This document shows, piece after piece, positions 6,040 through 38,409 of a stretch of DNA of 61,381 nt (its first letter is position 1; each line of letters starts with the position of its first letter). The notes under the pieces were generated by a model, which had not been told where the DNA came from, ran no database searches, and saw only the letters and a program-made list of their open reading frames with translations. Source of the DNA: an uncultured Mycoplasmatota bacterium (GTDB lineage: Bacteria; Bacillota_I; Bacilli_A; RF39; UBA660); NCBI GenBank assembly GCA_947569245.1, contig CANORV010000001.1, positions 1-61,381 on the forward strand, read 5' to 3'. The translations under genes were made by a program, and so were the position numbers.

Positions 6040-6041
6040 TT

Positions 6042-7277: not shown

Positions 7278-7476
7278 TTATAAAAATCTCCCTTAATTAC
7301 TAATTATTTTAACACATTTATCTTCCAAAATCATCACTTCTATCAATATTTTTATTATTAAAAAAGTTAATATTTTTCACTATCAAAGCACTCTTTTTAT
7401 AATAACTTACTATCAAAAACTAATTTACAACCCAAATTTTTATTATAAACAAAAAAGAGATGATAGCATCACTTTC

Positions 7477-10586: not shown

Positions 10587-10677
10587 AATAACCACCACTA
10601 AAAATTATACATTAAATTTATTATTCATACTAGTTTAAATAAAACTTTTTTTGTACATATTAAAAACAGGTGATAAA

Positions 10678-13175: not shown

Positions 13176-14223
13176 ATATAGCATGTTTTCTTTTGATACC
13201 CTAACATTCTTTTTAATTGCATCTTTAAGTAGTAACATAGGATATCTTACTTTTATTAAAGATACTAAAATAGATACTATTTTTTTAATTTTAATTGGTT
13301 CTGTTTTAGGCTTAATTCCTATTTACATTTATAATAAAATAATTTCTTATAATGAGGATAGAAATATCATTGAAAATATTGAATATCTTTTTCCTAAAAT
13401 AAATTTATTTATAAAAATTATTTTAATTATAACAAGTTTTTTAATTATGTGTATCTCTTTAAAAGAAATATCTAGCTTTATAAATATTTACTTACTAAAA
13501 AATACTAATACCCTTTTCATTAGCTCTATCTTTCTTCTTTTAGTATTATATACATCTAGTAAAGGAATAAATACAATTGTAAAAGCAAGTACAATATGTT
13601 TCTATCTTTTTGTTTTTATAAATATTTTATCAATTGTAGGAACCATAAATTTAGTAGATTTAAATAATTTAAAACCTCTTTTTATAAGTAATAAAATATC
13701 TCTTTTAATTGATAGTGTTATTTATTCATTTTTATCTACCTCTCCTCTTTTTATGTTAAGTATTATTAAAAAGAAAGATTTAAATAAAAAAAATTATTTA
13801 AAAAGTAATCTTTATAAAACATATATTTTTACTTCAATTTTCATCGTTATAGAATTTATTTTTACACTTGGAATATTAGGTATCACTCTTTTAAATATAT
13901 ATAAATATCCTGCTATTAATATTTATAAAAAGATATCATTTTTAAATATTTTTGAACGAGTTGAATCATTTTTTGCTATAAAGTTTTTATTTTATTCTTT
14001 TTTCTTAATTTCTATATCTCTCATCTTTGTTTTACATTTATCAAAAAGTTTATTAAAAAACAAGAAAAAAGATAACCTACTACTTGCAAGTTATTTTCTC
14101 TTAATTATATTTATAAGTTTCTTTTGTAAGTTTGATTTTTCTATTTACTTAATATCTTCATATTTATTAGGTATCTTTATTCCTATTATTATTTATATTA
14201 AAATGATTATTTTAAGTAAATAA
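13165..14223 (+). CDS. spore germination permease, GerA-family B subunit
   Basis: About 10 predicted TM helices over 352 aa. Overlaps the C subunit gene by 11 nt. Third gene of the ger operon. Confidence 0.75.
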   Translation: MKNKYSMFSFDTLTFFLIASLSSNIGYLTFIKDTKIDTIFLILIGSVLGLIPIYIYNKIISYNEDRNIIENIEYLFPKINLFIKIILIITSFLIMCISLKEISSFINIYLLKNTNTLFISSIFLLLVLYTSSKGINTIVKASTICFYLFVFINILSIVGTINLVDLNNLKPLFISNKISLLIDSVIYSFLSTSPLFMLSIIKKKDLNKKNYLKSNLYKTYIFTSIFIVIEFIFTLGILGITLLNIYKYPAINIYKKISFLNIFERVESFFAIKFLFYSFFLISISLIFVLHLSKSLLKNKKKDNLLLASYFLLIIFISFFCKFDFSIYLISSYLLGIFIPIIIYIKMIILSK

Positions 14224-16799: not shown

Positions 16800-16873
16800 G
16801 CCGATTTAGTTTAGTGGTAAAACAGATGCATGGTAAGCATCAGAGGACTGTTCAATTCAGTCATTCGGCACCA
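16800..16873 (+). tRNA. tRNA-Thr (anticodon GGU), encoded CCA
   Basis: Hand-folded cloverleaf. Acceptor GCCGATT/ATTCGGC (one mismatch). D stem GTTT/AAAC. Anticodon stem GATGC/GCATC with loop ATGGTAA. T arm GACTG-TTCAATT-CAGTC. 3' ACCA. Confidence 0.85.
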
Positions 16874-16893
16874 GATTGATAGGAAACTCGAAC
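16868..16893 (+). repeat. direct repeat copy 1 (tRNA 3' end plus 20 nt), att-like
   Basis: GCACCAGATTGATAGGAAACTCGAAC. It matches 22389-22414 at 24 of 26 positions. Confidence 0.7.
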
Positions 16894-16912
16894 TTCGAGT
16901 AACAATAGAAAG

Positions 16913-17258: not shown

Positions 17259-17313
17259 TTTACTAAATTCTGACAATTTAGTAAAAACACACTTGCAAAT
17301 TGACATATTCAAT
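17259..17313 (+). repeat. 5' box copy A (conserved sequence upstream of a cargo gene) with hairpins
   Basis: TGACAATTTAGTAAAAACACACTTGCAAATTGACATATTCAAT is about 85% identical to 22491-22531. It is preceded by a perfect 11-bp inverted repeat, TTTACTAAATT/AATTTAGTAAA. Confidence 0.6.
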
Positions 17314-21816: not shown

Positions 21817-22268
21817 AAGTATTATTTACAGCATTTAATGGAAAAAGTAATTCTTCAAAACTTTTGTTAGACAAAATTAATAGTGATAATAAATTGTATT
21901 TAAGAAATAGTTTCAGCACTAGTGTTAATCAACTAAAAAAAGAATTGAATAGTAAAAACTATGACTTAATTATTTCATTTGGTCAAGCCCCTTTAGACAA
22001 AGATACTATAAAAATTGAAACTATTGGTCAAGATAAAATAAAATATAAAACAAAATATGATTTTACATCATTAGAAGAAACATTTTGTATTAATAATTAT
22101 AAAACTATTATATCGAATAATGCAGGAGCATACTTATGTAATAATATTTATTTTAATGGACTTAAATATATTGATGATAACAAATTAAATACTAATATGA
22201 TTTTTATTCATATACCAGCAATAGATAATATTAGTAACATTGATAATTTGGCAAATATCTTCAATTAG
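21813..22268 (+). CDS. pyroglutamyl-peptidase I (C15)-like protein
   Basis: 'AGAYLCNNIYF' resembles the catalytic Cys region 'GTFVCN' of pyroglutamyl peptidase, and 'FIHIP' resembles its His region. ATGA overlap with the upstream gene. Confidence 0.5.
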   Translation: MKVLFTAFNGKSNSSKLLLDKINSDNKLYLRNSFSTSVNQLKKELNSKNYDLIISFGQAPLDKDTIKIETIGQDKIKYKTKYDFTSLEETFCINNYKTIISNNAGAYLCNNIYFNGLKYIDDNKLNTNMIFIHIPAIDNISNIDNLANIFN

Positions 22269-22388
22269 AAAAATGTTTAAAAAATATAGCATTATTAGTA
22301 AAAATAGTTTATAATTTAGATATGAAGTCAGTACTATATGTACTTGATTACTTAATTTTGCGAAAAGTTGTAGATAACTATCACTATC

Positions 22389-22414
22389 GCACCAGATTGA
22401 TACCAAACTCGAAC
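22389..22414 (+). repeat. direct repeat copy 2, att-like
   Basis: GCACCAGATTGATACCAAACTCGAAC. Confidence 0.7.
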
Positions 22415-22442
22415 CTCTCTATTTTAGAGAGGCTCGAGTTTT
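22408..22442 (+). terminator. rho-independent terminator downstream of the island-1 operon
   Basis: CTCGAACCTCTCT-ATTTT-AGAGAGGCTCGAG followed by TTTT. Confidence 0.55.
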
Positions 22443-22467
22443 AAAATATCCTAAGTTTTGATATAAT
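22439..22467 (+). promoter_or_regulatory. candidate extended -10 promoter upstream of 5' box B
   Basis: TTTTAA, 17-nt spacer, TG-n-TATAAT. Confidence 0.35.
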
Positions 22468-22490
22468 GTTTTTGTAAATAAATTGAATTT

Positions 22491-22531
22491 TGTCAATTTA
22501 GTAAACACACTTGTACATTGACATCATCAAT
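22491..22531 (+). repeat. 5' box copy B
   Basis: TGTCAATTTAGTAAACACACTTGTACATTGACATCATCAAT. The CATTGA-CATCA-TCAATG hairpin carries a compensatory base-pair change relative to copy A (AATTGA-CATAT-TCAATT). Confidence 0.6.
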
Positions 22532-22552
22532 GAATGTGTGTAGGAGGTACTT

Positions 22553-23260
22553 ATGAAGAAAGATTGTAAATTGACGTTTTTTGAAAATTTCAATGATTTA
22601 AATAATTGGAATTTTAACATTGGAAGTGGACTTAAAAATTTATGGGGGAATCATGAGAAAGAGTTTTATACTCAAAAAGATGATAATATTTATATAAAGG
22701 ATAATAAATTATATATTGTTGCTAAAAGAGAAAAATTTGAAGATTGTAATTATACCTCAGCAAGAATAACTACGAAAGATAAAAAATATTTTAAATATGG
22801 TTATATTGAAATAAAAGCTAAACTTCCTACGGGAAGGGGTTCATGGCCCGCTTTATGGAGGATGGGGCAAAACGGATTATGGCCTATAGGTGGAGAAATA
22901 AATATTATGGAACATATTGGAATTAATCAAAATATGATTTACCACACAATTCATTCTAAAAATCATATATGTAAATCTTATTTCTCACATAAAGAAATAA
23001 TAAATGGTGTTTCAGATGACTTTCATATATACGGAATGCTATGGGAAGAGAATGCTATTGAATTCTTTGTTGATAATGTTCCTTATGGAAAAATAACTAA
23101 TGATAAATATATAAATAAGGAGGATTAGCCATTTAATGATTATTTTTATTTTATTATTAATTTAGCAGTCGGAGGAGATTGGGCTGGAGAAATAGTTGAT
23201 GAAGATTTACCATTTATTTTTATAATTGATTATATTAAGGTTTATCAGAAAAGTTGTTGA
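22553..23260 (+). pseudogene. GH16 beta-glucanase/laminarinase-like gene interrupted by an in-frame TAG
   Basis: 'GGEINIMEH' corresponds to the GH16 ExDxxE motif with Asp replaced by Asn. The TAG at 23126-23128 is followed in the same frame by 'PFNDYFYFIINLAVGGDWAGE...IDYIKVYQ', a typical GH16 C-terminus. No signal peptide. Confidence 0.7.
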
Positions 23261-23268
23261 ACGTCCTT
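23249..23268 (+). repeat. 3' box copy B
   Basis: AAAAGTTGTTGAACGTCCTT. It contains the TGA that ends the extended GH16 frame. Confidence 0.6.
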
Positions 23269-23862
23269 TCCAATGTCATCAGTTTAAGAAACTATGCAAG
23301 AAATTGTATAGGTTTCATCATTTATCACACGCCAAAATTCATCAGTTATAATTGATGTTTAACTGCCTTAATATTAAAATTAAATACTACTTAATTTATT
23401 GTAACTATTCTTATTATAGGGACTAAAATGAACTTTATGTTTCCTACCTTTTCTTATTGGTATTTTATATTTAGACATTTTATTTATTAATTTATCATAC
23501 ACAACTTTAATCTTTTATTTTCGTCTTCTTCTAACATTATCTTTATTCATTACTTTTAAATAATCCTATTGCCATATCTTCATCTATAGTCATTTCATAC
23601 TTATATTTATTTTGTTCTAGTTTTTCTTCTGTTTCTTTCATCATAGACGAAACTATATTAAAAATGAGTACACTAGAGAAAAAATATTGTTCTATTATAA
23701 TCTTGAAACTACTAATAAATTTTTCTGTTTTTAACTTCCATTTTAAAAATTTTTATAAATCGCCCCACTTTGGAAACACTATCTTTAATCTAAGTAAATT
23801 TGACAAAAAAACAATACTTATGCACAATAATAAGTACATTTGAGAGGAGAATAAGAATATAT

Positions 23863-24486
23863 ATGATAATACATACAAAAGAAGAACTTCCTATATTACT
23901 TGACTACTGTAAAGCTACTCCATATTCTGATGCAAAACCTGGTGGAGATTTTTACAAAATTAAATCTCAAACATTTTGCTTTCCTGATGGAACAATACAA
24001 ACTAGAGAATATATAGATAAAAGAAAAGCCAGCGTTGTAATACCAATAACAGAAGATAAAAATGTTGTTTTTGTTATTCAACCAATTGCATTATCAGAGG
24101 AAGGATCTTTAATAGAGTTTCCAGCTGGATATTGGGAGTTAAACGAAGATGGCTTACAAGCTGGAAAAAGAGAACTGTCAGAAGAAACAGGCTATGTTCC
24201 AGAAAAAATACTATATCTTGGTAGCCATTATCAAGATCCTGGTAGTATTAAACAAAAGGTTGATGTATATTTAGCCCTAAATTGTAAAAAGTTACATAAG
24301 CAAAAACTTGATAAAGGTGAATTTATAAAATATGTTGAAATACCATATGATTTAGCTCTTGAATTAATGGATGAAGGATATTTAAAAGATGCTAATTCTT
24401 ACATTGCATTAAGTAAAAGTAATAGAGTTTTACAAAAACAATATAAAAAGCAACAATATAATATTAAAAATAAAAGTTGTAAATAA
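23863..24486 (+). CDS. NUDIX hydrolase (ADP-ribose pyrophosphatase-like)
   Basis: NUDIX box 'GYWELNEDGLQAGKRELSEETGY'. Start moved to MIIHTKEE (GAGAGGAG RBS). Confidence 0.85.
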   Translation: MIIHTKEELPILLDYCKATPYSDAKPGGDFYKIKSQTFCFPDGTIQTREYIDKRKASVVIPITEDKNVVFVIQPIALSEEGSLIEFPAGYWELNEDGLQAGKRELSEETGYVPEKILYLGSHYQDPGSIKQKVDVYLALNCKKLHKQKLDKGEFIKYVEIPYDLALELMDEGYLKDANSYIALSKSNRVLQKQYKKQQYNIKNKSCK

Positions 24487-24497
24487 CTACATTACTA

Positions 24498-24513
24498 ACA
24501 CCAGATTGACAGA
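24498..24513 (+). repeat. direct repeat copy 3 (short), att-like
   Basis: ACACCAGATTGACAGA shares the exact 11-mer CACCAGATTGA with copies 1 and 2. Confidence 0.4.
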
Positions 24514-24721
24514 ATAACGCAAATCTTACTCATAAACATCCAATCTAAAAGGACAAAGAAAAAACTTAACTATTAAATATTTCTAAAATAATTATAACAA
24601 ACATTGTTTCTTATGCAATAATTTTATGCTAACTTTTTTAAATTAACATATAATACAATTATTAAATCTTACCTATTTTCTAAAATAAATCTGTGTTAAA
24701 ATTATATATAGGTGATGTCCT

Positions 24722-25516
24722 TTGAACATATATAAAAATTTAAACAAAATAACTAAATATATCGATGAAAATCTTGAAAATGATATAAACTATGAAACAT
24801 TAGCAAATTTTTTAGGAGTAAATGTCTATACTATGCAAAGATTATTTACTATGATTACAGGTATTTCCCTATCGGAATATATTAGAAAAAGAAGATTATC
24901 TAGTGCCGGTTTTGATTTATATGAGAAGACTTCAAAAATAATTGATATTGCAATTAAATATCAATATGATAATCCAACATCATTTTCTAGGGCATTTGAA
25001 AAATTTCATGGAATTAAACCAAGTCTAGTAAACAAAGTAACGAAACTTAAAAATTTTCCGAGAATAATTTTCAATGAAGATGTTAAAATTACTACTGAAT
25101 TTGACTATGAAATAATCACTCTTGACGAAATGCATCTATATGGTATTGGTATCACAACAAATAATAAAAAAATCACAAATGACGCACCAATCTTTTTTAA
25201 AGAAATCGAAAACAAATATATAAACAAATATGGAGAAATCAAATATGGAATGATTACATATGATACAAAACATGAAGAATGTCAAAAATATTATTGTCTA
25301 TACGATAAAGTAATAGATGAATTTGAAAAGATAATAATTCCTAAAAGTAAATGGTTAAAATTTAGAATCAACTCCCAAAATGCTAAAGACATCCAAGAAA
25401 TATCACATAAATTTTACAAAGAATTTCTACCATCAATTAAATATAATCTAAAAGAAATGCCTGAACTAGAATACTATCATAATGATGTAACTGACTTTTT
25501 GATTGCTATTTATTAA
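24722..25516 (+). CDS. AraC-family transcriptional regulator with GyrI-like effector-binding domain
   Basis: The N-terminal double HTH ('LANFLGVNVYTMQRLF', 'IDIAIKYQYDNPTSFSRAFEKFHGIKP') is AraC-type. The C-terminal ~150 aa are Rob/GyrI-like. TTG start. Confidence 0.8.
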   Translation: MNIYKNLNKITKYIDENLENDINYETLANFLGVNVYTMQRLFTMITGISLSEYIRKRRLSSAGFDLYEKTSKIIDIAIKYQYDNPTSFSRAFEKFHGIKPSLVNKVTKLKNFPRIIFNEDVKITTEFDYEIITLDEMHLYGIGITTNNKKITNDAPIFFKEIENKYINKYGEIKYGMITYDTKHEECQKYYCLYDKVIDEFEKIIIPKSKWLKFRINSQNAKDIQEISHKFYKEFLPSIKYNLKEMPELEYYHNDVTDFLIAIY

Positions 25517-25552
25517 ACTGACAAAATTAGTTGATAAAATGTCAGTTTTTTA
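25517..25552 (+). terminator. rho-independent terminator after the AraC gene
   Basis: ACTGACA-(16 nt)-TGTCAGT followed by TTTTTT. Confidence 0.55.
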
Positions 25553-25593
25553 TTTTACATTTTTGCTATACTTGTAATCAGGGTGACAAATTT

Positions 25594-27450
25594 ATGGTGT
25601 TAACATCAGAAATTTATTTAACCAAAAAATTTGTTTCAAAGAATGAATGGTTAGAATTAATTAAAACAATATCAAATTATAATGGAATTTTAAAAAAATG
25701 GAAAATAATTATTACTAATGATAAAAATCAAATAAGATACTTTATTAAAACTAGATGTACCCTACCAGCTACTATCAATAATTTAAATTCTTTTTTATTA
25801 AAACCTTATAAAGAAATAACTAGCAAAAAATCAAACTATACATTACTCACATTACCAAAATTTGACAGTAATATAATTGATTTAATAAATTATAGTGAAA
25901 TTAAAAATAAAGGTACTCTTGAGTATTTAGAAATTAATTTTTTAAAATTATATGATGATAAAATTAAATCCAATATAACTTATTACTTGAATAAAAATGG
26001 AATAATCAAAAAATATAAAGTAATATTTGCTATTCCAACAAACATATTATCAATAGATTTTGAAGGAAATAAAAGATACTTTTATAAAAGTCCTCCAAAG
26101 TATTTAGAAATTAATAAAATATTAAATTTATTAAGTAGTGATAAAAATAATGCTTTAGTATCTATTGATACATTTCCATATTTACAAGGAAATTTCTATT
26201 TAAATCAAAATAATTTCAGTTTTGATAAACACTCTATCATATTTGGTTCTTCTGGCTCAGGTAAATCTAAATTAATAAGCCTATTAATAAAAAATATTAA
26301 TAAAAATGAAAATTTATATCAAAAATATAAAGTCGTAGTTATTGATCCTCATGCAGCACTTGAAAATGATATTGGTGGTCTAGGAAAAGTTATCGATTTT
26401 AAAAACAGTTTAGACAGCATAGACTTATTTATTAATAATAATAACGACATTGTAGCATCCACTGAACTTTTATTAGATTTATTAAAATCTCTAATTTTAG
26501 ACCAATATAATTCAAAGTTAGAAAGAGTTTTAAGACACTGCATACATTTATTACTGACTGATGAAGCATTTAATTTTAGAAACCTAAGAAAACTTATTTT
26601 AGATTTAGAATATAGGAATACTTTAATTAAAAAATTAAAATATAATTTACCAATTAACGTAATCGATTTCTTTCTATCTGATTTTAATGATTTAAAAACT
26701 AAATCTTATGGTGAAGCTATATCCCCTATTATAAGTTTTATAGACGAAATGGAAATGATTCCCGTATTTAATTCCGAAGAAAATTTAGAAAGTCTAAAAA
26801 ATACAATTGACGATAATTTCTTAACTTTATTCTCACTAGATAGAATAAAATTAGGAGATAAAGTTACTAAAACTATAGCAGGATTAATAATGCAACAATT
26901 ATTAACTATAGCACAAAGTAGAAAAATAAATAAACACATTATATTTATAATAGATGAAGTTGCTGTTGTCGAAAATCCTATTTTATCTAGATATTTATCA
27001 GAAGCAAGAAAATATAATTTATCTTTAATACTAATAGGACAATATTTTAATCAAATATCAACCGAATTAAAAAACTCTATCTTTGCTAATGTTATCAATT
27101 ACTTTATATTCAGAGTATCAAAATTAGATGCCAGTTTATTAGTTGATAATTTTAATATGAAAATACCTTTAGATGACTCTAGAGATAGAAAAATCAAACT
27201 ATTGACTGAATTAAACAACAGAGAGTGCATTATAAGAATAGATTCAAATAAAATATTATTACCAGCATTTAAAGCAACTACATTAGATTACACAAGTATT
27301 CCTAGAATTAAGAAAACAACCATAGATTATGATAATAGCAAAAATAGTAAAAATACATCAAGTAAATCAAAAACTGATTTTAGCTTAAATAATGATATAA
27401 GTTTAAAAGATATTTTAATATCAAATTCAACAAACAAGAAAGGTGTGTAA
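25594..27450 (+). CDS. HerA/DUF87-like P-loop ATPase (FtsK-HerA superfamily)
   Basis: Walker A 'GSSGSGKS' followed by 'VVVIDPHAALEN'. Walker B 'IIFIIDEVA'. 'EARKYNLSLILIGQ'. A ~220-aa N-terminal domain is unassigned. Start at MVLTSEI (GGGTGA RBS). Confidence 0.65.
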   Translation: MVLTSEIYLTKKFVSKNEWLELIKTISNYNGILKKWKIIITNDKNQIRYFIKTRCTLPATINNLNSFLLKPYKEITSKKSNYTLLTLPKFDSNIIDLINYSEIKNKGTLEYLEINFLKLYDDKIKSNITYYLNKNGIIKKYKVIFAIPTNILSIDFEGNKRYFYKSPPKYLEINKILNLLSSDKNNALVSIDTFPYLQGNFYLNQNNFSFDKHSIIFGSSGSGKSKLISLLIKNINKNENLYQKYKVVVIDPHAALENDIGGLGKVIDFKNSLDSIDLFINNNNDIVASTELLLDLLKSLILDQYNSKLERVLRHCIHLLLTDEAFNFRNLRKLILDLEYRNTLIKKLKYNLPINVIDFFLSDFNDLKTKSYGEAISPIISFIDEMEMIPVFNSEENLESLKNTIDDNFLTLFSLDRIKLGDKVTKTIAGLIMQQLLTIAQSRKINKHIIFIIDEVAVVENPILSRYLSEARKYNLSLILIGQYFNQISTELKNSIFANVINYFIFRVSKLDASLLVDNFNMKIPLDDSRDRKIKLLTELNNRECIIRIDSNKILLPAFKATTLDYTSIPRIKKTTIDYDNSKNSKNTSSKSKTDFSLNNDISLKDILISNSTNKKGV

Positions 27451-27453
27451 AAA

Positions 27454-28152
27454 ATGAATGATAAAAAAGTACTAGAAATTATTAATAAGATATTTAAAAA
27501 TATATTTAATAAAGAGAATAATTATTCCTTAGATACATTATTAGAAAAATTTGCTTTTGATATTAAACTACCAAAACAAGTTAATGATTCAACTACAAAT
27601 GAAATAACTTGGGCTGATGCTATCAATAGTGGTAGATTTATTACAAATAAAAATATGGAAAAAAAAGATGAAACTGAAGGTTGGATGCTACCAAAAAAAG
27701 AAATTAATAATCTTCAAGAATTAATTGATATCTGGAATACAATTAATTTAACTACAACTGAAAGAGTATACGATTCAATTAATGTTTCCAAAAGTGATAC
27801 TATTTATAGATGTGAAAATATATATAGAAGTACTGGTTGTAGTGATTCCAAAAACTTAATTTATTGTGACTCTTGTACAAATAGTGAATTCTTACTTGCA
27901 TCACAAAGATCAACAACTTGTAATTTTAGCATAAGATGTGATGATTCTAAAGATTGTAGTAACAATTATAATGTCATATGTTCAAATAAAATAAGTAATT
28001 CCCTATTTATTCAAGACTGTTTTGACTTATATGAATGTATGTTTTGTTCTCATATAGCATCAAAAAGATTTTGTATAGTAAATATGCAATTTGAAGAACA
28101 AGAGTATTATGAAATAAAAAAACTAATTATAGAATGGATATTAAACTCTTAA
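27454..28152 (+). CDS. Cys-rich repeat protein of unknown function
   Basis: 232 aa. Twelve Cys lie in the last ~95 residues in short periodic units (STGCSDS, IYCDSC, TTCNFS, IRCDDS, KDCSNN, VICSNK), and none in the first ~117. Starts 3 nt after the ATPase stop. Confidence 0.55.
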   Translation: MNDKKVLEIINKIFKNIFNKENNYSLDTLLEKFAFDIKLPKQVNDSTTNEITWADAINSGRFITNKNMEKKDETEGWMLPKKEINNLQELIDIWNTINLTTTERVYDSINVSKSDTIYRCENIYRSTGCSDSKNLIYCDSCTNSEFLLASQRSTTCNFSIRCDDSKDCSNNYNVICSNKISNSLFIQDCFDLYECMFCSHIASKRFCIVNMQFEEQEYYEIKKLIIEWILNS

Positions 28153-28328
28153 AAAGACCGATACTTTATAAAAATCTATACTATAATTAACAAAATACAT
28201 TTGATAAAAACATTATTGTATGCTATTTCTAAATATATTAAAAAAACATTAATCATAAAAAATTAAAATTATACGAAAGACAATTAATACAACTAATAAA
28301 ACTACCCTTATAAAAAGGAAAACTAATT

Positions 28329-29207
28329 ATGAATAATCATGAAAAAAATAATTTACTTAATTCAATCTATTTATCAATAATTACAGCATCTGATTTAACA
28401 CAATATCTTATTAAAATTAAAAACATCATTTACTTACTTGAAGAAAATCAAAAAACAATTCAAGAAATTGAAAAACTATATCAGGAATTTTTAGATAATT
28501 ATTATAATCTAAACAATATTTTTAACTTTAACAATCAGATACAAATATATACCCTATACAAAAAATTATTACTTGATGGATATTTATCAAAAGATAAAAC
28601 TTTTAACTTCAGAAATGATCTTCAAAATGAAACAACAAAAAAGTTATATGGTACAAAAATTTTTACTGGATATGCTTGCTGTAGACATATCTCAGCAATG
28701 CTTTGTGATATTTTAAATAATCTTAATATTCCCTCATGCACTGTACATGTATACTTTCCTGATTCAACGGATGACTATCTAATAAAAGATGAAAAAACTC
28801 TAATTAACTATCAAAATCAAAAAACTTTTTTAGAACTACTAAAAAAAATAATAGGAAATCATGCCATAACATACAGTTATCAAAACGAAAAAAATTACTT
28901 TTTAGATGCATCTTGTAACGATATATATGAGTTAAATAAATCTAAAAAAAATATTTTAACAAGTATAGACAATAAAAATAATACACCAATTTTCATCAAA
29001 AAAACTACTGAAGGCTATAACTTTCCCATAAAAAAAATAACCAAAAAGAATAATATTAGTTACGATGAAGTACAACTATTTGCTAATGAAGTAAAAAATA
29101 TATACCATAACAATATAGATATTTTTGAACATTTTTATAACGAAAACCAAGAAATATACAAAAACATCTATTCCAAAACACTAAACTTCTATCGTTTTAT
29201 AAAATAA
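28329..29207 (+). CDS. hypothetical protein with transglutaminase/papain-like Cys-His-Asp pattern
   Basis: 'TGYACCRHISAMLCDILNNLNIPSCTVHVY' then 'GNHAITYSY..NYFLDAS'. Order and spacing match the transglutaminase-like core. Confidence 0.45.
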   Translation: MNNHEKNNLLNSIYLSIITASDLTQYLIKIKNIIYLLEENQKTIQEIEKLYQEFLDNYYNLNNIFNFNNQIQIYTLYKKLLLDGYLSKDKTFNFRNDLQNETTKKLYGTKIFTGYACCRHISAMLCDILNNLNIPSCTVHVYFPDSTDDYLIKDEKTLINYQNQKTFLELLKKIIGNHAITYSYQNEKNYFLDASCNDIYELNKSKKNILTSIDNKNNTPIFIKKTTEGYNFPIKKITKKNNISYDEVQLFANEVKNIYHNNIDIFEHFYNENQEIYKNIYSKTLNFYRFIK

Positions 29208-29272
29208 TTATAGCATATTTTTCTTGCCAAAACTCGAACAATAGTATAAACTGTTATTTGAGGTGTTTTATA

Positions 29273-30826
29273 ATGCAATTAAAATTTTCAGATGATTTTA
29301 ACTATATTATTGAAGATTTCAAAATTTGGAAAAGTGAAAAAAACATACCAATAAATATAAAAAAATATATAAAAGAAACATCTGATACAATCACCATTTA
29401 TGCAAAAGATACTAATAATCTTTATTGTGCAAAATGCCTAAAACAACTAGACCAAAATAACTACTGTAAAACTTGCAACATTTCACATAATAATATTATA
29501 AATAATATAAAAAATATTGATATAGAAGATGTAGATGAATTTCACAAAGATTTAAAAATCGTTGACACAATCAAAGATTGCTATGGCAGCTATTGTACTT
29601 ACTCTTGCTACTACTATGTCTTTGACAAAATTGATGAAAATATCTTCCTATATCTTTTAAAAGAAAATATTACTTATAATAACCCATTTAAAATAGGAAG
29701 TTATAAACAATCAAATATCAATATTAATAATGCCTATCTAATACAAAAAGACAAAATACTAGACATTTTCACAAATAAATATTATAAATTCGAAACTATG
29801 AACTATAATGATGAACTCGAAAATAACGATAATATAGACGAAAAAAAGTTTAATGAATATATAGATACCCTTGATTTTTTATACCCTGAAATTAATGCAT
29901 TCTTATATATAGATAACCTTTATATTCTAAAAGATTCTATATATAAATATACTACCTTCATAGAAAATGCTTCTTATTTAACAAACAAAAATAAAATATC
30001 CTTAGCCCAACTTACTTATTTACCAATATACTGTAAAGCATTTGAATATCTATCAAAACTAAAATTGTATAATCTAGCATTTAATAATGCCGACGTTTTC
30101 AAAAGTGGAAAAAACTTTAAAGAAATCTTTAAAATTGAAAAAAGTCACCTACCATTCATGAGAAATAATGACATATCATACAATACTCTAGTAGCCTTAC
30201 AACTTTGTCAAACAGAAGACAAAAACCTATTAAATTTTTTAGAAAGTCAAATATTAATAGCAACTGACATAATAAAAGATTTTAAGATAGATGCTAAAAA
30301 ATTAAAAAACTATTTTGATAAATTAAACCTAGATGAAACCTATCTAAACGAGTACCATGATTATTTAAAAATGGCCAAAGATTTAGGACTAGATTTAAAA
30401 GATAAAACAATACTTTACCCTAAAAACTTACTACTAGAACATGATAAACTATACCTACAAATAGAAACTAATAAAGACCCTAACATGGATCAAAAAATTA
30501 GAAATTTAGCTAATATTTCAGCACTAAATTACTATGAAGACGAAAATTATATTATTTTTCCTGCTAACTCCATCAGCTGTTTAATTGATGAAAGCAATCA
30601 ACAACATAACTGTGTTCGTACTTACTGTAAAAAACTTGCTAGTAACAACTGTCAAATATACTTTCTAAGAAAAAAAAGTGATAAAAACAAATCACTTGTT
30701 ACAATAGAAGTAAAAAATAATCAAGTAATTCAAGCCAGAGAAAAATTTAATAAAAATATATCTGACGAATATAAAAAAATAATTGATAAATGGAAAAAAG
30801 ACTTACTTCCAATTATAAACAACTAA
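29273..30826 (+). CDS. PcfJ-like protein with N-terminal zinc-ribbon
   Basis: 'CAKCLKQLDQNNYCKTCN' is a CxxC..CxxC ribbon. The C-terminal 'ESNQQHNCVRTYCKKLASNNCQIYFLRKK...VTIEVKNNQVIQAREKFNKN' resembles the PcfJ domain as I recall it. Start at MQLKFSD (GAGGTG RBS). Confidence 0.5.
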   Translation: MQLKFSDDFNYIIEDFKIWKSEKNIPINIKKYIKETSDTITIYAKDTNNLYCAKCLKQLDQNNYCKTCNISHNNIINNIKNIDIEDVDEFHKDLKIVDTIKDCYGSYCTYSCYYYVFDKIDENIFLYLLKENITYNNPFKIGSYKQSNININNAYLIQKDKILDIFTNKYYKFETMNYNDELENNDNIDEKKFNEYIDTLDFLYPEINAFLYIDNLYILKDSIYKYTTFIENASYLTNKNKISLAQLTYLPIYCKAFEYLSKLKLYNLAFNNADVFKSGKNFKEIFKIEKSHLPFMRNNDISYNTLVALQLCQTEDKNLLNFLESQILIATDIIKDFKIDAKKLKNYFDKLNLDETYLNEYHDYLKMAKDLGLDLKDKTILYPKNLLLEHDKLYLQIETNKDPNMDQKIRNLANISALNYYEDENYIIFPANSISCLIDESNQQHNCVRTYCKKLASNNCQIYFLRKKSDKNKSLVTIEVKNNQVIQAREKFNKNISDEYKKIIDKWKKDLLPIINN

Positions 30827-30862
30827 AAACAACTATACTGTCAATAACCAGAAAGGAAAAAA

Positions 30863-31387
30863 ATGAAAAACAAAGATATCCTAAACAAATCCATAATTCT
30901 AATTGGTCCAATGTGTGTTGGAAAAACAACAATGGCAAAATTACTAAGAAAAAAACTAAACATGAATAATATCTCACTAGATAATAAAGAACAACTAAAA
31001 TATTTATATCAAAATACTAACAACTTCAAAAATCAAGAACAATTTAATTTATATTTAGTAAAAACAATAATATCCAATTTAAAATCACCAACTATCATTG
31101 ACTTTGGAGCAAACCATTCCATATACGATGATATAAACGACTTTAAAAAAATAAAAAACATCTTAAAAGATTTTAAAAACATCATTCTCCTAATTCCAAG
31201 TTCTAATACTCTAGAATCAATAGAAATTCTAGCCAAAAGAAAAAAAGAACTATTAAGTACAAAGCCATATAACCAAAAACCAATTACTAGTCCGTGTAAC
31301 TATACTCTTGCAACAATCACAATCTATACTAAAAATAAAACCGAAGAACAAACCCTCAAAGAAATATTAAAACATCTTAATCAATAA
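30863..31387 (+). CDS. P-loop kinase-like protein (shikimate/gluconate kinase-like fold)
   Basis: Walker A 'LIGPMCVGKTT' at the N-terminus, 174 aa. Substrate unknown. Confidence 0.5.
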   Translation: MKNKDILNKSIILIGPMCVGKTTMAKLLRKKLNMNNISLDNKEQLKYLYQNTNNFKNQEQFNLYLVKTIISNLKSPTIIDFGANHSIYDDINDFKKIKNILKDFKNIILLIPSSNTLESIEILAKRKKELLSTKPYNQKPITSPCNYTLATITIYTKNKTEEQTLKEILKHLNQ

Positions 31388-31421
31388 AAAAAGAAAGAAC
31401 ACCGCTCTTTTTTATTCACTA

Positions 31422-32165
31422 CTAACTTCTTGCTGCTCCATCAACTGATAATATAGCACCAGTTATATAACTAGCCATATCACTTGCTAAAAACAAAAAA
31501 GCATTAGCAATATCACGAGCTTCTCCTACCCTTCCAAGTGGTATTGTTTTAATAAGCGGTTCTATCACTTCTTTTGGAAGATTTTTAACCATATCTGTAT
31601 TAATAACCCCAGGTGCAACAGCATTAACTCTAATATTAAAAGGTGCTAATTCCCTTGCAAGAGACTTCGTAAACCCATTAACAGCTGCCTTACTAGTAGG
31701 ATAACCTATTCCTGATGGTTGACCATAAATACTTACCATTGATGAAGTATTCAAAATAACTCCCCCACCACTTTTTTTCATAAAAGAAACTACAGACTTT
31801 GTAACATTAAAAATAGCATTTACATTCAACTCCATTATACTAGAAAAATCAACTGCTGTAGTATCCTCTATCTTCTTATTAGCACTAATTCCTGCATTAT
31901 TTATTAAAACATCAATATGACCATATTCATCAACTATCTTTGTAATTACCCTATTTACATCATCATAATTATTTAAATCAGGAAAATATCCATCAACCTT
32001 AATACCATCAGCAAAAAGACTATTAACTGCTTTTGAAACACTTTCCTCTTTAGAACCAAACAAAATAACACTTGCACCACTTTTCTTAAAAGTTTTAACA
32101 ACCTCTAAACCAATTCCTCTTGTACCACCAGTAACAACTACTACTTTTCCATCCAAACTAATCAT
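31422..32165 (-). CDS. SDR-family oxidoreductase (FabG-like 3-oxoacyl reductase)
   Basis: 'VTGGTRGIGLE', 'NNAG', and 'YPTSKAA' (YxxxK). Start moved to MISLDGK (GGAGG RBS). Confidence 0.85.
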   Translation of the reverse strand: MISLDGKVVVVTGGTRGIGLEVVKTFKKSGASVILFGSKEESVSKAVNSLFADGIKVDGYFPDLNNYDDVNRVITKIVDEYGHIDVLINNAGISANKKIEDTTAVDFSSIMELNVNAIFNVTKSVVSFMKKSGGGVILNTSSMVSIYGQPSGIGYPTSKAAVNGFTKSLARELAPFNIRVNAVAPGVINTDMVKNLPKEVIEPLIKTIPLGRVGEARDIANAFLFLASDMASYITGAILSVDGAARS

Positions 32166-32190
32166 AAAATTATACCTCCATCTAAATAAA

Positions 32191-32562
32191 TTATTGATAT
32201 CTTTCAAGTACTTTTTCCAAAGAATCATCATCAGAAACTACCAAATAAAATTTAACCTCATCGACAAAATCTTTAAAAAATTTATCATCATCTAATTCCT
32301 TAACTTTATAATATAAATTGCAAATATTTAACCTATCATTTAAAACATAAATTGCTTCCATCAAATAATAAACACTTTTTATCTTTATAAAATAATCAAT
32401 TATCTTCGTAAAACAATAATCATAATTACCAAAAGCTAACAATATCCTCCATAACTTTTCACTATCCAAAGAATCAATATAAAAATCTATCAACCTATCT
32501 AAATCAGCAGATGATGAAATAACTTCACCATTAAAACAATCAGTTAACCTATTACTTTTCAT
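32191..32562 (-). CDS. hypothetical protein (123 aa)
   Basis: ORF overlapping the yqeK-like gene's 3' end by 11 nt. No motifs recognised. Confidence 0.5.
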   Translation of the reverse strand: MKSNRLTDCFNGEVISSSADLDRLIDFYIDSLDSEKLWRILLAFGNYDYCFTKIIDYFIKIKSVYYLMEAIYVLNDRLNICNLYYKVKELDDDKFFKDFVDEVKFYLVVSDDDSLEKVLERYQ

Positions 32563-33790: not shown

Positions 33791-35236
33791 CTATAAAAGA
33801 ACCATCAATACTGTAAGAATCAAAATATTAACAAGTGCTATTGTTAATACCACTTTACCAGCCCATTTTACCCAAGTAGCATATTGTACTTTAGCAAGAG
33901 CAAGTCCTCCCATAATAGCTCCACATGTTGGAGTAATCAAATTTACTAATCCATTAGCAGCAACCATTGTCATAACAGAAACTTCTGGATTATAACCAAC
34001 TTGACTAGTAATTGGTCCGATAATTGGTGCAGATAATGATACAAGTGCAGAACTAGATGGAACAAGAATTGATAAAACAACATGTAAAATATAATTAAGT
34101 GGTGCAAAAACATAAGAAGGCACAACCTTTAATAACTCTGCTGCATTATAAATAATATAATTATCTAAATAAGTACTACTCATCAAAACTGATGCACCAC
34201 GAGCAATTGCTATAATCAAAATAACTCCAACCATATCATCTGCTCCATCAATAAAAGTATCAACAAATTGCTTTTCACCAGTTCTATTAACAAGTCCAAT
34301 AACAACAGACATAACCAAAAACCAAACAGATGCTTCATAAAAATACCATGAACCAAGTGGACTACCAGTTAACCAACCAGTAAATTTATCAAAAATATTT
34401 ACCCCAAAATCACCCCAAGGAATAAATCCTACTATCATTACAACAAAAGTCAAAGCAAATAGCCATAAAGTAATAACCTGCTTCTTATTAAGACGAACAT
34501 CTGCTTCCTTCTTTACTGCTTCTACTCCATACTCCATCTCCATATCTTTTCTTTCCCTAAGAGACAAAATAGTAGAACCCTTTTTCTTAATAACCTTTTT
34601 TGCATAATTCATGACAAATATTATTGAAATTAATAAAGATGAAATCCAAAGAAGTGTTCCAATTGCAATAATTATTCCCTGATTAACTTTCATTCCATCA
34701 GGTAATGCAGAAATTGCTGCTCCTACTGCAAAAGGATTTATCGTAGAACCTAAAACCCCAGAACCAGCTCCAAGTAAGACAATGGCACTAGAAACAATCG
34801 TATCCATACCAGCCATAACCATAGCTGCTGCTAAAATAGCATAAAATCCAACAGTCTCTTCTAGCATTCCATAAGTTGTCCCACCAATTGAGAAAATAAA
34901 CATCAAAATAGGAATCAAAGCAAGCTCATTACCCTTAAGAGCCTTTACAAGTGACTGAATTCCTGTCTCCAGTGCCTTTGTTTTAGAAACTACTGCCAAA
35001 AAACCTCCTAAAATAAGAACGAAAATACAAACATCAATTGCATCCTCAAATCCCTTTAACGGTGCCATTAAAATATCTGGAAGCGTTGCCCTAACAACAC
35101 CTGTACCATTCTTAATAACATCAGATACAAATTGTGCCTGTGGTAACACATAAGTTAAAGCCCCTAACATAAAAATTAATAAAAATATAATCGAAAAAGA
35201 AGTTAAAAACTCTTTTCTCTTTTTGCCCTTTGCCAT
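33791..35236 (-). CDS. YfcC/DcuC-type carrier, putative arginine/ornithine exchanger
   Basis: Polytopic 481-aa membrane protein. It is the last gene of the arc operon, 2 nt after arcC. The family call rests on overall pattern and context. Confidence 0.65.
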   Translation of the reverse strand: MAKGKKRKEFLTSFSIIFLLIFMLGALTYVLPQAQFVSDVIKNGTGVVRATLPDILMAPLKGFEDAIDVCIFVLILGGFLAVVSKTKALETGIQSLVKALKGNELALIPILMFIFSIGGTTYGMLEETVGFYAILAAAMVMAGMDTIVSSAIVLLGAGSGVLGSTINPFAVGAAISALPDGMKVNQGIIIAIGTLLWISSLLISIIFVMNYAKKVIKKKGSTILSLRERKDMEMEYGVEAVKKEADVRLNKKQVITLWLFALTFVVMIVGFIPWGDFGVNIFDKFTGWLTGSPLGSWYFYEASVWFLVMSVVIGLVNRTGEKQFVDTFIDGADDMVGVILIIAIARGASVLMSSTYLDNYIIYNAAELLKVVPSYVFAPLNYILHVVLSILVPSSSALVSLSAPIIGPITSQVGYNPEVSVMTMVAANGLVNLITPTCGAIMGGLALAKVQYATWVKWAGKVVLTIALVNILILTVLMVLL

Positions 35237-35238
35237 TA

Positions 35239-36177
35239 CTATTCTCCTTTCCTACTAATTACTGTTCCTGTTTTTCCAAGTAAAGCATCACGAGCCTTAC
35301 TAAGTGAAGTAATTAGTGCCTGTCCACCACGCCTTTTTTCAACAAAAGTAAGACAAGCTTCTATTTTTGGCAACATACTTCCTTCCTTAAACTCACCAGT
35401 TTTAATATAATGTCTAGCAAGTTTTGGGGTTAAGTAATCAAGCTGTTTCTCATTTGCTGTATTATAATTAATACAAACCTTCTCAACTGCTGTTAATATC
35501 AAAAAGATATCAGCTTTAATAGAAATTGCTAACTTTGCACTAGTTTTATCCTTATCAATAACAGCATCAACCCCACGTAATCTATTATAATGATATACTA
35601 CTGGAACTCCACCACCTCCACCAGCAATTACAATATTTTTTAAATTCAAAAGCTGTGTAATAGTTTTTGTCTCAACAATCCTAATTGGTTCAGGAGATGC
35701 AACAACTCTTCGATAGCCTCTACCAGCATCTTCCTTAAAAGTATAACCTCTAACCTTAGAAAGATGATCAGCTTCTTCCTTAGTATAAAAACTTCCAATT
35801 GGCTTAGTTGGATTCTTAAAAGCCTTATCTTTCTTATCAACAACAACCTGAGTAATCACTGTAACACAATTTTTACGCATATTCTTTTTAATCAACTCTT
35901 CTTGAATTGATTGCTGCAAATGATAACCAATATACCCCTGACTCATAGCACCACACTCTGGAAAAGCTACTACTGGTGTTGACGTAGCTTCATGTGATAC
36001 TTCAAGTGCCATATTAATCATACCTACCTGTGGTCCATTTCCATGAGTTACAACAATATCGTAACAATCAGCAAGTTCAACTATATACTTAGCTGTTTTT
36101 TGAACTAACTTTAACTGTTCCTCTGGAGTATTACCTAAAGCATTTCCTCCAAGAGCAATTACTATTTTCTTACGCAT
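35239..36177 (-). CDS. arcC: carbamate kinase
   Basis: 'KIVIALGGNAL', 'VTHGNGPQVG' and 'IAGGGGGVPV'. 312 aa. Confidence 0.9.
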   Translation of the reverse strand: MRKKIVIALGGNALGNTPEEQLKLVQKTAKYIVELADCYDIVVTHGNGPQVGMINMALEVSHEATSTPVVAFPECGAMSQGYIGYHLQQSIQEELIKKNMRKNCVTVITQVVVDKKDKAFKNPTKPIGSFYTKEEADHLSKVRGYTFKEDAGRGYRRVVASPEPIRIVETKTITQLLNLKNIVIAGGGGGVPVVYHYNRLRGVDAVIDKDKTSAKLAISIKADIFLILTAVEKVCINYNTANEKQLDYLTPKLARHYIKTGEFKEGSMLPKIEACLTFVEKRRGGQALITSLSKARDALLGKTGTVISRKGE

Positions 36178-37166
36178 TACTTTTTCATTGTTGCATACAT
36201 AACAGCCTTAATTGTATGGAGTCTATTCTCTGCTTCATCCATAACCTTAGATTGACTAGACTCAAAAACTTCATCAGTAACTTCCATACAATCAATCTTA
36301 AACTTATCATGTATTTCCTTTCCAATCTTAGTATTAATATCATGAAATGATGGTAGGCAGTGAAGAAATATTGCATCAGGATTAGCAAGACGCATTAAAT
36401 CCTTCGTAACACGATATGGTGTTAATAACTTAATTCTTTCTTTCCATAAAGAATCATCTTCTCCCATAGAAACCCAAACATCGGTATAAACAACCGAAGC
36501 ATTATCTACTCCCTCATTAACATCCTCAGTTAAAAGAATCTCTGAATTATGTTTTTTAGCAAAATTTCTACATTTCTCAACTAACTCATCACTTGGAAAT
36601 AATGATGCTGGACCACAACAACAAAAATCTATTCCAAGCTTTGAACAAATAACCATAAGAGAATTAGCAACATTATTTCTAGCATCCCCTAAAAACACTA
36701 ATTTTCTTCCCCTTACATCCTTAAAATTTTCATACATTGTCATTATATCAGCAAGCATCTGTGTTGGATGAAACTCATTTGTTAACCCATTCCAAACAGG
36801 TACACTAGAAAATTCTGCTAGCTCCTCGACAATTTTTTGTTCAAAACCACGATACTCAATTCCATCATACATTCTAGCCAAAACTCTAGCCGTATCCTTA
36901 ATACTTTCCTTTTTACCCATTTGAGAACCAGTTGGTCCAAGATAAGTTACTCCCATACCTAAATCTTTTGCACCAACTTCAAAAGCACATCTTGTTCTAG
37001 TAGAATCTTTCTCAAATAAAAGAACAACATTTTTCCCTTTCAAATATTCATGACTCTTACCAGATTGTTTTTTTCTTTTAAATCTCATTGCTAACTTAAT
37101 CAAATAAATAATTTCTTCCTCTGAATAATCTAACAACTTCAAAAAATCTCTTCCGTAAAAATTCAT
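36177..37166 (-). CDS. arcB: ornithine carbamoyltransferase (catabolic context)
   Basis: 'STRTRCAFE', 'HPTQMLAD' and 'FLHCLP' motifs. Confidence 0.9.
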
Positions 37167-37167
37167 C

Positions 37168-38409
37168 TTAATCCTCCCTTATCAAAGGCATACTCATACA
37201 TCTTGGTCCACCTCTACCACGTGAAATCTCTGCTCCTGGAATTTCAATTACCTTTAATCCATTTTCACGTAAAACTTGATTAGTGATAACATTTCTGTCA
37301 TAAACAATAACTACTCCTGGAGCAATACACAAAGTATTAGATCCATCATTCCATTGTTCCCTCTCTGCTGCAACCTTATCTCCACCAGCACATGGTATTA
37401 AAGTAATTGGCATTTTTAAATAAGTAGATAAAATATTTTCCAAACTATCATTTATTTCAACAACATTTAAATCTTCGTCACTATCCTTATCATTTCCCTC
37501 AGTTATTTCAAATACCTGTAAAGTATCAACAATACCAGGATGATATGTAAACTTATTTCTATCTACCTGAGTAAATACTGTATCAAGATGCATAAAAGCA
37601 CGACTGTTTGGAATATTAAAAGCAAGCACTGTATCTATCTTACATTTTTTATCCTTAAACAAATTTTTAGCAATTGCATCAATTGCAGAAGCCTCAGTTC
37701 TTTGAGAAATACCAATTGCTAAAATATGCTCATTCAAATTAAGAATATCTCCACCCTCAATATGATATGGATAATCTCTATCGAAATATTTATCTACCTT
37801 CCCACTATAATCAGGATGATACTTAAATATATATTCAGCATAAATAGTTTCCCTGTTTCTAGTTACAGAATACATTTTATTTAAAGAAATACCATTTCCA
37901 ATACTTGCAAAATTATCCCTAGTAAAATATAAATTAGGCATTGGAGCTGCTAAAAAGTCCGTTTCTTCAGTTACTAAATCAACTAAAGATTTTTCATCTT
38001 TTCTCTTATTACGATTAATCTCATATATTTGAATACCTTCCATAGTCTTTAAAACAAGCTCTTTACTATTTTTAAAACTATTTAAATATTGAAACACTAA
38101 ATCCTTATACTTTGGAGTTCTAATACCTGCTTCATATATAAACTGCGTAATAAACTCCTCTCTTATATTTTCTCCAAGATCAATAACAGCTGCCATCAAA
38201 TCTTCTAGATAAACTACCTCGACATCATTTTCTTTTAATACCCTAGCAAATTCATCATGTTCCTTTTGGGCAATTGGTAAATATGGAATGTCATCAAATA
38301 ACAACTCACTTAATGTATCAGGAGTTAAGTTTAATAACTCATTTCCTGGTCTATGTAATAATACTTTTTTTAATGGTTTAATTTCACTTTTAACATTTAT
38401 TATATTCAT
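37168..38409 (-). CDS. arcA: arginine deiminase
   Basis: N-terminal '[18 protein letters not shown]'. C-terminal '[12 protein letters not shown]' contains the catalytic Cys. 413 aa. Confidence 0.9.

Follow-up and report, generated by a model that had tools for sequence, protein, structure and literature searches.

What does a run of five co-oriented genes headed by a HerA-like ATPase do in the genome of an uncultured Mycoplasmatota bacterium, and do the five genes belong together at all? The locus lies in contig CANORV010000001.1, of which positions 1 to 61,381 were analyzed (this whole stretch, with a G+C content of about 26 %, is referred to as the window), and comprises five plus-strand open reading frames (ORFs) at 25594-27450, 27454-28152, 28329-29207, 29258-30826 and 30863-31387. 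They encode proteins of 618, 232, 292, 522 and 174 amino acids (aa), respectively: the ATPase, a cysteine-rich protein, a protein with transglutaminase-like motifs, a PcfJ-domain protein and a small kinase-like protein. The original prediction, made from the nucleotide sequence alone, took them for a single undescribed system starting with the ATPase. The five genes are indeed found where it placed them, and the far boundary also holds, being formed by convergent minus-strand genes, the first of which encodes a short-chain dehydrogenase (SDR). Comparison with other genomes, however, delineates a different unit: the functional unit predicted from the sequences is a three-part cassette, namely a Rob-like AraC regulator, a control region of about 77 nucleotides (nt) and a bicistron of the ATPase and its cysteine-rich partner, not the five genes.

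Relatives of the ATPase are encoded in at least 441 species genomes. Our locus set consists of the best 80 of these, compared by tblastn and ORF clustering, together with the window (81 loci); all 80 are metagenome-assembled genomes (MAGs) of uncultured gut Bacilli, 'Tenericutes' or Mollicutes, including Candidatus Coprovivens, Onthocola and Ventrenecus. These genera are filed by NCBI under Bacilli incertae sedis, and we take them to belong to the GTDB order RF39. The ATPase gene and the gene for the cysteine-rich protein are adjacent in all 81 loci, that is, in 80 of the 80 other species, and in 80 of the 81 the distance from the ATPase stop to the partner start ranges from -11 to +8 nt, which on sequence grounds indicates translational coupling; in the window, as originally noted, the second gene begins 3 nt after the stop of the first (27450 and 27454). 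The two proteins also diverge in concert: the correlation between their identity matrices is r = 0.89, compared with 0.75 for the ATPase and the regulator and 0.81 for the partner and the regulator (Mantel p 0.001), and conservation is highest for the partner, at a mean pairwise identity of 78 % versus 67 % for the ATPase. Co-occurrence and co-variation across genomes, proposed as a check with the original prediction, hold for this pair, whereas the three genes that follow it in the window recur in none of the 80 other species. The pair is described in none of the papers, databases and profile libraries searched, its proteins being called 'hypothetical' in every source. We conclude that the ATPase and the cysteine-rich protein, usually accompanied by the regulator, constitute a conserved, undescribed cassette of hundreds of uncultured gut bacterial species.

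The third part of the cassette lies upstream of the boundary originally drawn, which put the ATPase at the head of the cluster and thereby left out the regulator together with its control region. The regulator (264 aa; 24722..25516, plus strand) is a Rob/MarA-type AraC protein with a C-terminal GyrI-like/Cass2 ligand-binding domain. All of its Pfam matches exceed the cutoffs (HTH_18, 58.2 bits; Cass2, 40.2; GyrI-like, 34.4), RamA, Rob, SoxS and MarA are the closest relatives with solved structures, and as judged by this domain content it is a bona fide Rob-type AraC protein. It is encoded upstream of the ATPase in 66 of the 81 loci, about half of the 15 absences being contig edges, and an AraC/GyrI regulator is found upstream also in four of the more distant loci described below (L176-L178 and L181).

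The spacer between the regulator and ATPase genes measures about 77 nt, and its conservation at the DNA level across 63 loci is far above the conservation of the flanking proteins at the protein level. The consensus consists of AAACTGAC, 20 nt, GTCAGTTTTTT, about 20 nt, TTTGnTATACT, GAGGTGA and ATG. In the window, an inverted repeat, AAACTGACA-N16-TGTCAGTTT (also given as ACTGAC-N20-GTCAGT), followed by a T-run, occupies 25515..25552 on the plus strand, overlapping the stop codon of the regulator gene and standing just upstream of a putative promoter with an extended -10 element (TGcTATACT, 25564-25572, plus strand); the Shine-Dalgarno sequence of the ATPase operon, AGGGTGA, follows at 25580-25586 on the same strand. 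The motifs TtTG.TAtA.T and gaGG-tGa are conserved columns of the intergenic alignment (63 loci and the window). A terminator had originally been annotated at 25517-25552; the inverted repeat and T-run are present, but what was missed is that they belong to a control region conserved in 63 loci. Among 62 distinct sequences, conservation reaches at least 90 % in the repeat arms, in their spacing and over much of the loop; compensatory change in the arms is essentially nil (a single double change, with six wobble-compatible changes and some six mismatches), and there is no real covariation. As an RNA hairpin, the repeat has a predicted energy of -9.4 kcal/mol (z -2.0) with the T-run behind it; an Rfam scan of 22000-32500 yielded no matches. 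Arms and spacing are kept in the distant loci L176-L178, with a different loop, and loci that lack the regulator also lack the repeat, L056 being the one exception. Collectively, these observations lead us to consider the inverted repeat a candidate operator of the regulator, possibly doubling as the terminator of the regulator gene.

A further gene is linked to this region in a minority of loci. It encodes a well-conserved Transglut_core protein of about 309 aa (our family f9; PF01841, E 7e-8), which is inserted between the regulator and ATPase genes in L064 (3257-4298), L078 (6918-7960), L093 (6905-7946) and L092 and lies after the partner gene in L068 (10616-11488). In L064, L078 and L093, the repeat and promoter are duplicated, one copy preceding the inserted gene and the other the ATPase gene, which suggests that in these species the Transglut_core protein joins the same regulon.

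Could all five genes of the window nevertheless make up one undescribed system? In addition to their common orientation and the short gaps between genes 3, 4 and 5, an identical set of five is present in the same-species contigs L001 and L004, and the association of a true Transglut_core gene with the cassette in five other loci hints that a function like that of gene 3 can associate with it. The five-gene order, however, is repeated only in contigs of the same species (L001-L010), and the absence of the genes for the 292-aa, PcfJ and kinase proteins from all 80 other species (tblastn and ORF clustering) largely refutes a five-gene system. Genes 2 and 3 are separated by a 176-nt spacer that contains no conserved control motif, gene 3 has no established homology to the Transglut_core family, and genes 3-5 are of deviant composition: their coding-strand GC skew is -0.26, -0.17 and -0.38, respectively, the last value being the lowest in the window, compared with a mean of +0.28 (sd 0.21) for the genes of the window, which makes them the most deviant genes (z -2.2 to -3.2). 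Given this skew, they look like separate, compositionally foreign cargo, that is, species-specific local add-ons to the cassette, and we attach almost no weight to the idea that the five form a single system. In protein clusters at 90 %, the 292-aa protein has 5 members and the kinase-like protein 3.

The identity of these three add-on genes was predicted with mixed success. The PcfJ-like protein (29258..30826, plus strand), which has a Cys-rich N-terminal region, contains the PcfJ domain at residues 366-507 (PF14284; 98.4 bits against a cutoff of 25, E 4e-28); its start is possibly an ATG 15 nt downstream, as chosen by the gene callers in L001. Similarly, the small P-loop kinase-like protein of 174 aa (30863..31387, plus strand) matches AAA_18 (30.4 bits against a cutoff of 29.4) and, weakly, NCBIfam kinase models. 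The 292-aa protein (28329..29207, plus strand) was assigned a transglutaminase/papain fold from its motifs; it has no match in Pfam at E<=1, in NCBIfam or in PADLOC, and nothing meaningful among PDB sequences, so that it can be called transglutaminase-like on motif evidence only. We considered it as a homolog of the Transglut_core family f9, but hhalign matched the two over 21 columns, located at the Cys motif (probability 2 %, E 0.02), the likeness being confined to these columns around CR..S..L..IL (pairwise BLASTP E 0.004), and this homology is not established. Scans of viral contigs with the 292-aa and PcfJ proteins gave no matches; distant homologs of the PcfJ domain occur in 224 phage records (Firmicutes phages) and 49 plasmid records. 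A second compositionally atypical block of the window comprises three plus-strand genes at 10651-14223, with a G+C content of 17.6-20.5 % for 12105-14223 and a coding-strand GC skew near zero or negative (z down to -2.1).

The ATPase itself (25594..27450, plus strand) was identified originally as a HerA-type enzyme with an unassigned N-terminal domain, and profile searches bear this out at the level of the superfamily. The protein matches DUF87 (PF01935; 33.3 bits against a cutoff of 23.2), TrwB_AAD_bind (28.5 against 20.5) and, marginally, TraG-D_C (22.1 against 22), with 32, 28 and 9 of 32 family members, respectively, matching these families. The Walker A (G218-S225), DPH, Walker B (D454/E455) and RK...Q residues are invariant across the family, which includes full-length relatives down to about 30 % identity, and a family-specific N-terminal domain of about 200 aa precedes the core. 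Neither the ATPase (maximal Kyte-Doolittle value over 19 residues, 1.13, with no transmembrane segment) nor the cysteine-rich protein contains a hydrophobic segment. The PADLOC matches are confined to the core (mad8, E 1e-15; HerA, E 8e-12, over about 85 residues), the full-length NCBIfam model HerA_antiphage is far from reached (11.9 bits against a cutoff of 800), and PDB sequence and profile searches detected nothing beyond the Walker A region, HerA included. The other four proteins of the cluster, the only ones scanned, gave no matches to the PADLOC mad models, so that among them the mad8-like ATPase has no companion from the MADS defense system. The ATPase is, by its motifs and profile matches, a soluble P-loop enzyme of the FtsK/HerA/VirD4 class and a member of the HerA/FtsK superfamily.

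For the cysteine-rich partner (232 aa; 27454..28152, plus strand), sequence searches returned no family at all: none of its 150 members matched a Pfam family, Hexapep included, and there were no matches in NCBIfam, PADLOC, PDB or the phage collection. An AlphaFold2 model built from a 150-sequence alignment is of high quality (predicted local distance difference test 96.8, predicted template modeling score 0.89) and shows an alpha/beta domain (residues 1-115), a short-period beta-solenoid with conserved Cys and His residues (116-210) and a C-terminal helix (215-231). The best Foldseek matches of this model are only weak ones, to the left-handed beta-helices of LpxD, gamma-carbonic anhydrase and GlmU (E 2.5e-4, template modeling (TM) score <=0.24), and a viral library provided nothing better. 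Residues C168, C176, C195, C207 and H200 are invariant across the broad family and C129, C141, C159 and C198 are at least 90 % conserved; the consensus contains the pairs C138xxC141 and C156xxC159, and the window protein has Ser at 159 and Cys at 162. On the model, these residues may form either a structural ladder or metal sites; the CxxC, Cys and His pattern probably holds metal.

Beyond the 80 gut Bacilli, a metagenome scan with distant ATPases recovered mostly unrelated relatives of the ATPase core (<=29 % identity), the only informative loci being L094, L105 and L131. The first of these, a contig of higher G+C content, carries the pair, with 36 % identity for the ATPase and 48 % for the partner. 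The pair is also located between rplJ-rplL and rplA in Saccharibacteria (L174 and L175) and is present in MAGs labeled Clostridia, Clostridiales and Pseudomonadales (L176-L181); its genes are adjacent or overlapping in L094 and in all of these. In some of the MAGs, the ATPase was called as two ORFs (449 and 198 aa at 6124-8035 in L176-L178; 526 and 115 aa at 4106-6011 in L181); the split is identical in the three independent assemblies L176-L178 and could represent a frameshift, a pseudogene or a real division of the protein. The cultured saccharibacterium Southlakia has no ortholog of the pair beside rplL (PMC10633639 supplement, transposon sequencing tables), and the pair therefore appears not to be universal in Saccharibacteria. 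This distribution bears on the possibility that the pair performs a constitutive housekeeping function of reduced-genome bacteria, such as chromosome segregation or double-strand-break processing, and is inherited vertically while its neighbors rearrange. Such a role would accord with a single-copy, strongly constrained pair present in at least 441 species genomes, with its placement among ribosomal protein genes in Saccharibacteria and with flanks made up mostly of ordinary genes. Nevertheless, given its absence from the rplL neighborhood of Southlakia, its scattered occurrence across phyla, which suggests horizontal transfer, and the linked regulator of an inducible type with a conserved candidate operator, we consider a housekeeping function quite unlikely.

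A role in defense is a further alternative, and it has to be weighed against the genomic surroundings. Among the 268 neighbors collected from the 80 species (141 downstream and 127 upstream genes, classified with Pfam), we found no enrichment for integrases, transposases or defense genes, which disposes of a defense-island or mobile-element context. The downstream genes fall into 127 Pfam families, the most frequent seen 3 times, and the upstream genes into 107, the most frequent (HD domain) seen 7 times; apart from the regulator, each flanking family is present in at most 7 of the 81 loci. Close relatives have common flanks and more distant ones do not, so that, on a moderate evolutionary scale, either the cassette changes place or the genes around it are rearranged. 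The pair could, then, be a new anti-phage or anti-plasmid module, its HerA-type motor cooperating with a sensor or effector of a novel kind and the regulator being an add-on. Known defense systems provide precedents in which motors of the HerA family are combined with effectors, and the partial PADLOC matches, the genomic position that differs between species and the patchy taxonomy (uncultured gut Bacilli, some Saccharibacteria excepting Southlakia, and other MAGs) all accord with such a role. However, profile searches revealed no nuclease, Sir2 or other effector domain; the high mean pairwise identity of the partner is unusual for defense genes; the PADLOC matches are limited to the ATPase core and the HerA_antiphage score is minute; the flanks show no defense or mobile-element enrichment; and Rob-like control that senses a small molecule is atypical of defense systems. 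The cassette is not typical cargo of mobile elements or defense islands, and we regard a defense function as unlikely, although it deserves some weight.

Several features of these surroundings should be recorded. In a 1-Mb contig of a related species (L011), a tyrosine integrase gene and a REP_ORF2-G2P (Rep) gene are found some 1.5 kb upstream of the regulator (region 4781-7585); they may mark a small integrated element beside, or carrying, the cassette. A NUDIX hydrolase gene is located directly upstream of the regulator in the window (23800-24486) and in the distant 'Clostridia' MAG L176 (4667-5212), a position it holds in at most 2 of the 80 species loci, and this may be a coincidence. To the left of the cassette, the 3' end of tRNA-Thr (16800-16873) together with the sequence downstream of it (16868-16896 in all) is repeated at 22389-22417 (90 % identity), and a partial repeat of the 3' end (13 of 14 positions) at 24499-24512 corresponds to the third att-like repeat that had been reported at 24498-24513; behind each of the first two copies lies a further repeated block (17266-17313 and 22486-22531). 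The arrangement resembles two inserted segments delimited by att-type sites in tandem, with no integrase gene apparent between the sites. On the other side, the minus-strand genes at 33791-38409 match genes annotated in L001 as a DcuC-type transporter, carbamate kinase, ornithine carbamoyltransferase and arginine deiminase. The arginine deiminase pathway encoded there is complete, in keeping with a fermentative, reduced-genome organism.

The remaining informative metagenome loci, L131 (1701-12099) and L105 (13-5258), connect the cassette with a different class of motors. Both encode ATPases resembling type IV coupling proteins (T4CPs), with TrwB_AAD_bind and T4SS-DNA_transf matches, beside 2-4 paralogous proteins of 530-584 aa, each of which contains two copies of the cysteine-rich solenoid-plus-helix module. 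The L131 paralogs carry treble-clef zinc fingers at both ends, and one ATPase fragment of this locus has the same finger at its C-terminus. By gene content, both loci look like bacteria of the candidate phyla radiation (CPR). This recurrence implies that the link between this ATPase branch and the solenoid module is older than the 232-aa family. It also raises the question of whether the cassette, as a coupling-protein-like ATPase and its adaptor or substrate, descends from a type IV secretion system (T4SS) or conjugation apparatus, either as a remnant or as a derivative that stands alone, with the PcfJ gene as a further trace. PcfJ takes its name from the plasmid pCF10, and this domain is common on plasmids and phages. 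The TrwB_AAD_bind and TraG-D_C matches of the family speak for such a descent, and so do the L131 and L105 loci, whose arrangement resembles a receptor with its substrates. Against it, the ATPase has no N-terminal membrane anchor; the cluster in the window contains no VirB4, VirB6, relaxase or other T4SS gene, in agreement with the original statement, here extended by Pfam, PADLOC and NCBIfam searches, that it encodes no Sir2, nuclease, T4SS, relaxase or integrase protein; T4SS genes are not recurrent in the 80 loci (Relaxase in 2 of the 127 upstream neighbors); and PcfJ is absent from all other loci. Furthermore, the ATPase family has no matches in the phage collection and only 7 distant matches in plasmids. 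A derivation of this kind has, in our estimate, little probability.

The interpretation that we favor, and consider rather probable as a whole, is that of a ligand-induced soluble motor with an adaptor under the control of a Rob-like regulator. Its organizational part is nearly certain; its biochemical part is much less so. The regulator would bind a small molecule via its GyrI-like domain, possibly a xenobiotic or a bile-type compound as Rob does, and in the ligand-bound form would activate the promoter through the conserved repeat. The ATPase would then form a ring like those of FtsK, HerA and VirD4 and, driven by ATP, would move or remodel a polymer, which could be DNA or nucleoprotein, or a protein substrate. 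The beta-solenoid partner, probably holding metal, could be an adaptor, a regulator or a substrate of the ATPase. Where, as in a minority of species, the control region is present in a second copy, the transglutaminase-like enzyme placed under it would be an optional member.

Several points weigh against this induced-motor interpretation. The inverted repeat, with its hairpin of -9.4 kcal/mol and the T-run, could be merely the terminator of the regulator gene. Regulation by the AraC/GyrI protein is not obligatory because the pair occurs without this regulator in about eight loci of uncultured gut Bacilli, in the Saccharibacteria loci and in L094, L179 and L180. Metal binding by the partner is a prediction, the assembly of a ring is extrapolated from the superfamily, and the substrate and the inducing ligand are conjectural. 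In addition, the position of the cassette shifts between species, as would equally be expected of a mobile accessory module, a defense system for instance.

A more specific version of the induced motor can be put forward as speculation. The pair might be an unrecognized machine of reduced-genome bacteria that depend on a host or partner (gut Bacilli, Saccharibacteria and, distantly, other CPR bacteria), in which a soluble FtsK/VirD4-like ring and a metal-binding solenoid, acting as a DNA mimic or polymer adaptor, are switched on by a xenobiotic-sensing Rob-like regulator so as to protect DNA-protein complexes, such as trapped topoisomerases, or to remodel them. We give this version only a small chance of being correct; if true, it would represent a new kind of inducible stress or resistance mechanism, neither defense nor conjugation.

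Whatever its exact function, the cassette is of interest on several counts. Both the uncultured reduced-genome gut Bacilli and the Saccharibacteria are abundant groups in which the majority of conserved genes have no explanation. Here, a widespread (at least 441 species genomes) and strongly constrained unit combines a known motor superfamily with a partner family that is in no database, and its delineation is corrected to three parts with different boundaries in place of five genes. The ligand-sensing regulator and the conserved candidate operator offer an experimental entry: once an inducer is found, the function should follow. The presence of the solenoid module beside coupling-protein-like ATPases in two CPR-looking loci suggests an old functional partnership that could bear on the handling of DNA or secreted proteins.

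How does the cassette compare with known systems? The closest structural parallel of the partner is to the left-handed beta-helix (hexapeptide-repeat) proteins LpxD, gamma-carbonic anhydrase and GlmU, with which residues 116-210 share a short-period solenoid and to which they give the best, albeit weak, Foldseek matches. The TM score is low, however, Hexapep was found in none of the 150 members, Cys and His residues take the place of the aliphatic positions, and the partner has no features of an acyltransferase or a carbonic anhydrase. The organization of the pair is reminiscent of HerA-NurA, SIR2-HerA and DUF4297-HerA modules, in which an ATPase of the DUF87/HerA-FtsK class is likewise tightly coupled to a single neighboring partner; the DPH and RK...Q motifs are also HerA-like. 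In contrast to these modules, the partner in the cassette is a cysteine-rich beta-solenoid without a family rather than a nuclease, Sir2 or DUF4297 protein (profile searches found no adjacent NurA, Sir2 or DUF4297 effector among the five proteins or in the partner family), the matches to the DUF87 and PADLOC HerA models span only some 70-85 residues around the Walker A motif, and Rob-like regulator control, present here, is not described there.

T4CPs with adaptors (VirD4/TrwB/TraG; DotL-DotM-DotN of Legionella) provide the second parallel. DotN is a zinc-binding adaptor of a T4CP, and the cassette, with its TrwB_AAD_bind and TraG-D_C matches, similarly pairs an ATPase with a small cysteine-rich accessory protein, related solenoid proteins being encoded beside the T4CP-like ATPases of L131 and L105. 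Unlike those systems, the cassette includes no membrane anchor and no T4SS or relaxase genes, and it is not carried on plasmids or integrative and conjugative elements. On present sequence evidence, it can be likened to a HerA-partner module or a T4CP-adaptor pair and would be a member of neither family.

Finally, the control of the cassette recalls the Rob, RamA, MarA and SoxS regulons. Rob is an AraC-family activator that carries a GyrI-like domain. The target in the cassette is a motor ATPase with a beta-solenoid partner, instead of an efflux pump or a detoxification gene, and the candidate site, a perfect inverted repeat within which ACTGA recurs as a direct repeat, differs from the canonical asymmetric marbox. 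What the two have in common is the two-part HTH_18 and GyrI-like architecture of the regulator, as in Rob, and a conserved site just upstream of the -10/-35 region, as in class II marbox promoters.

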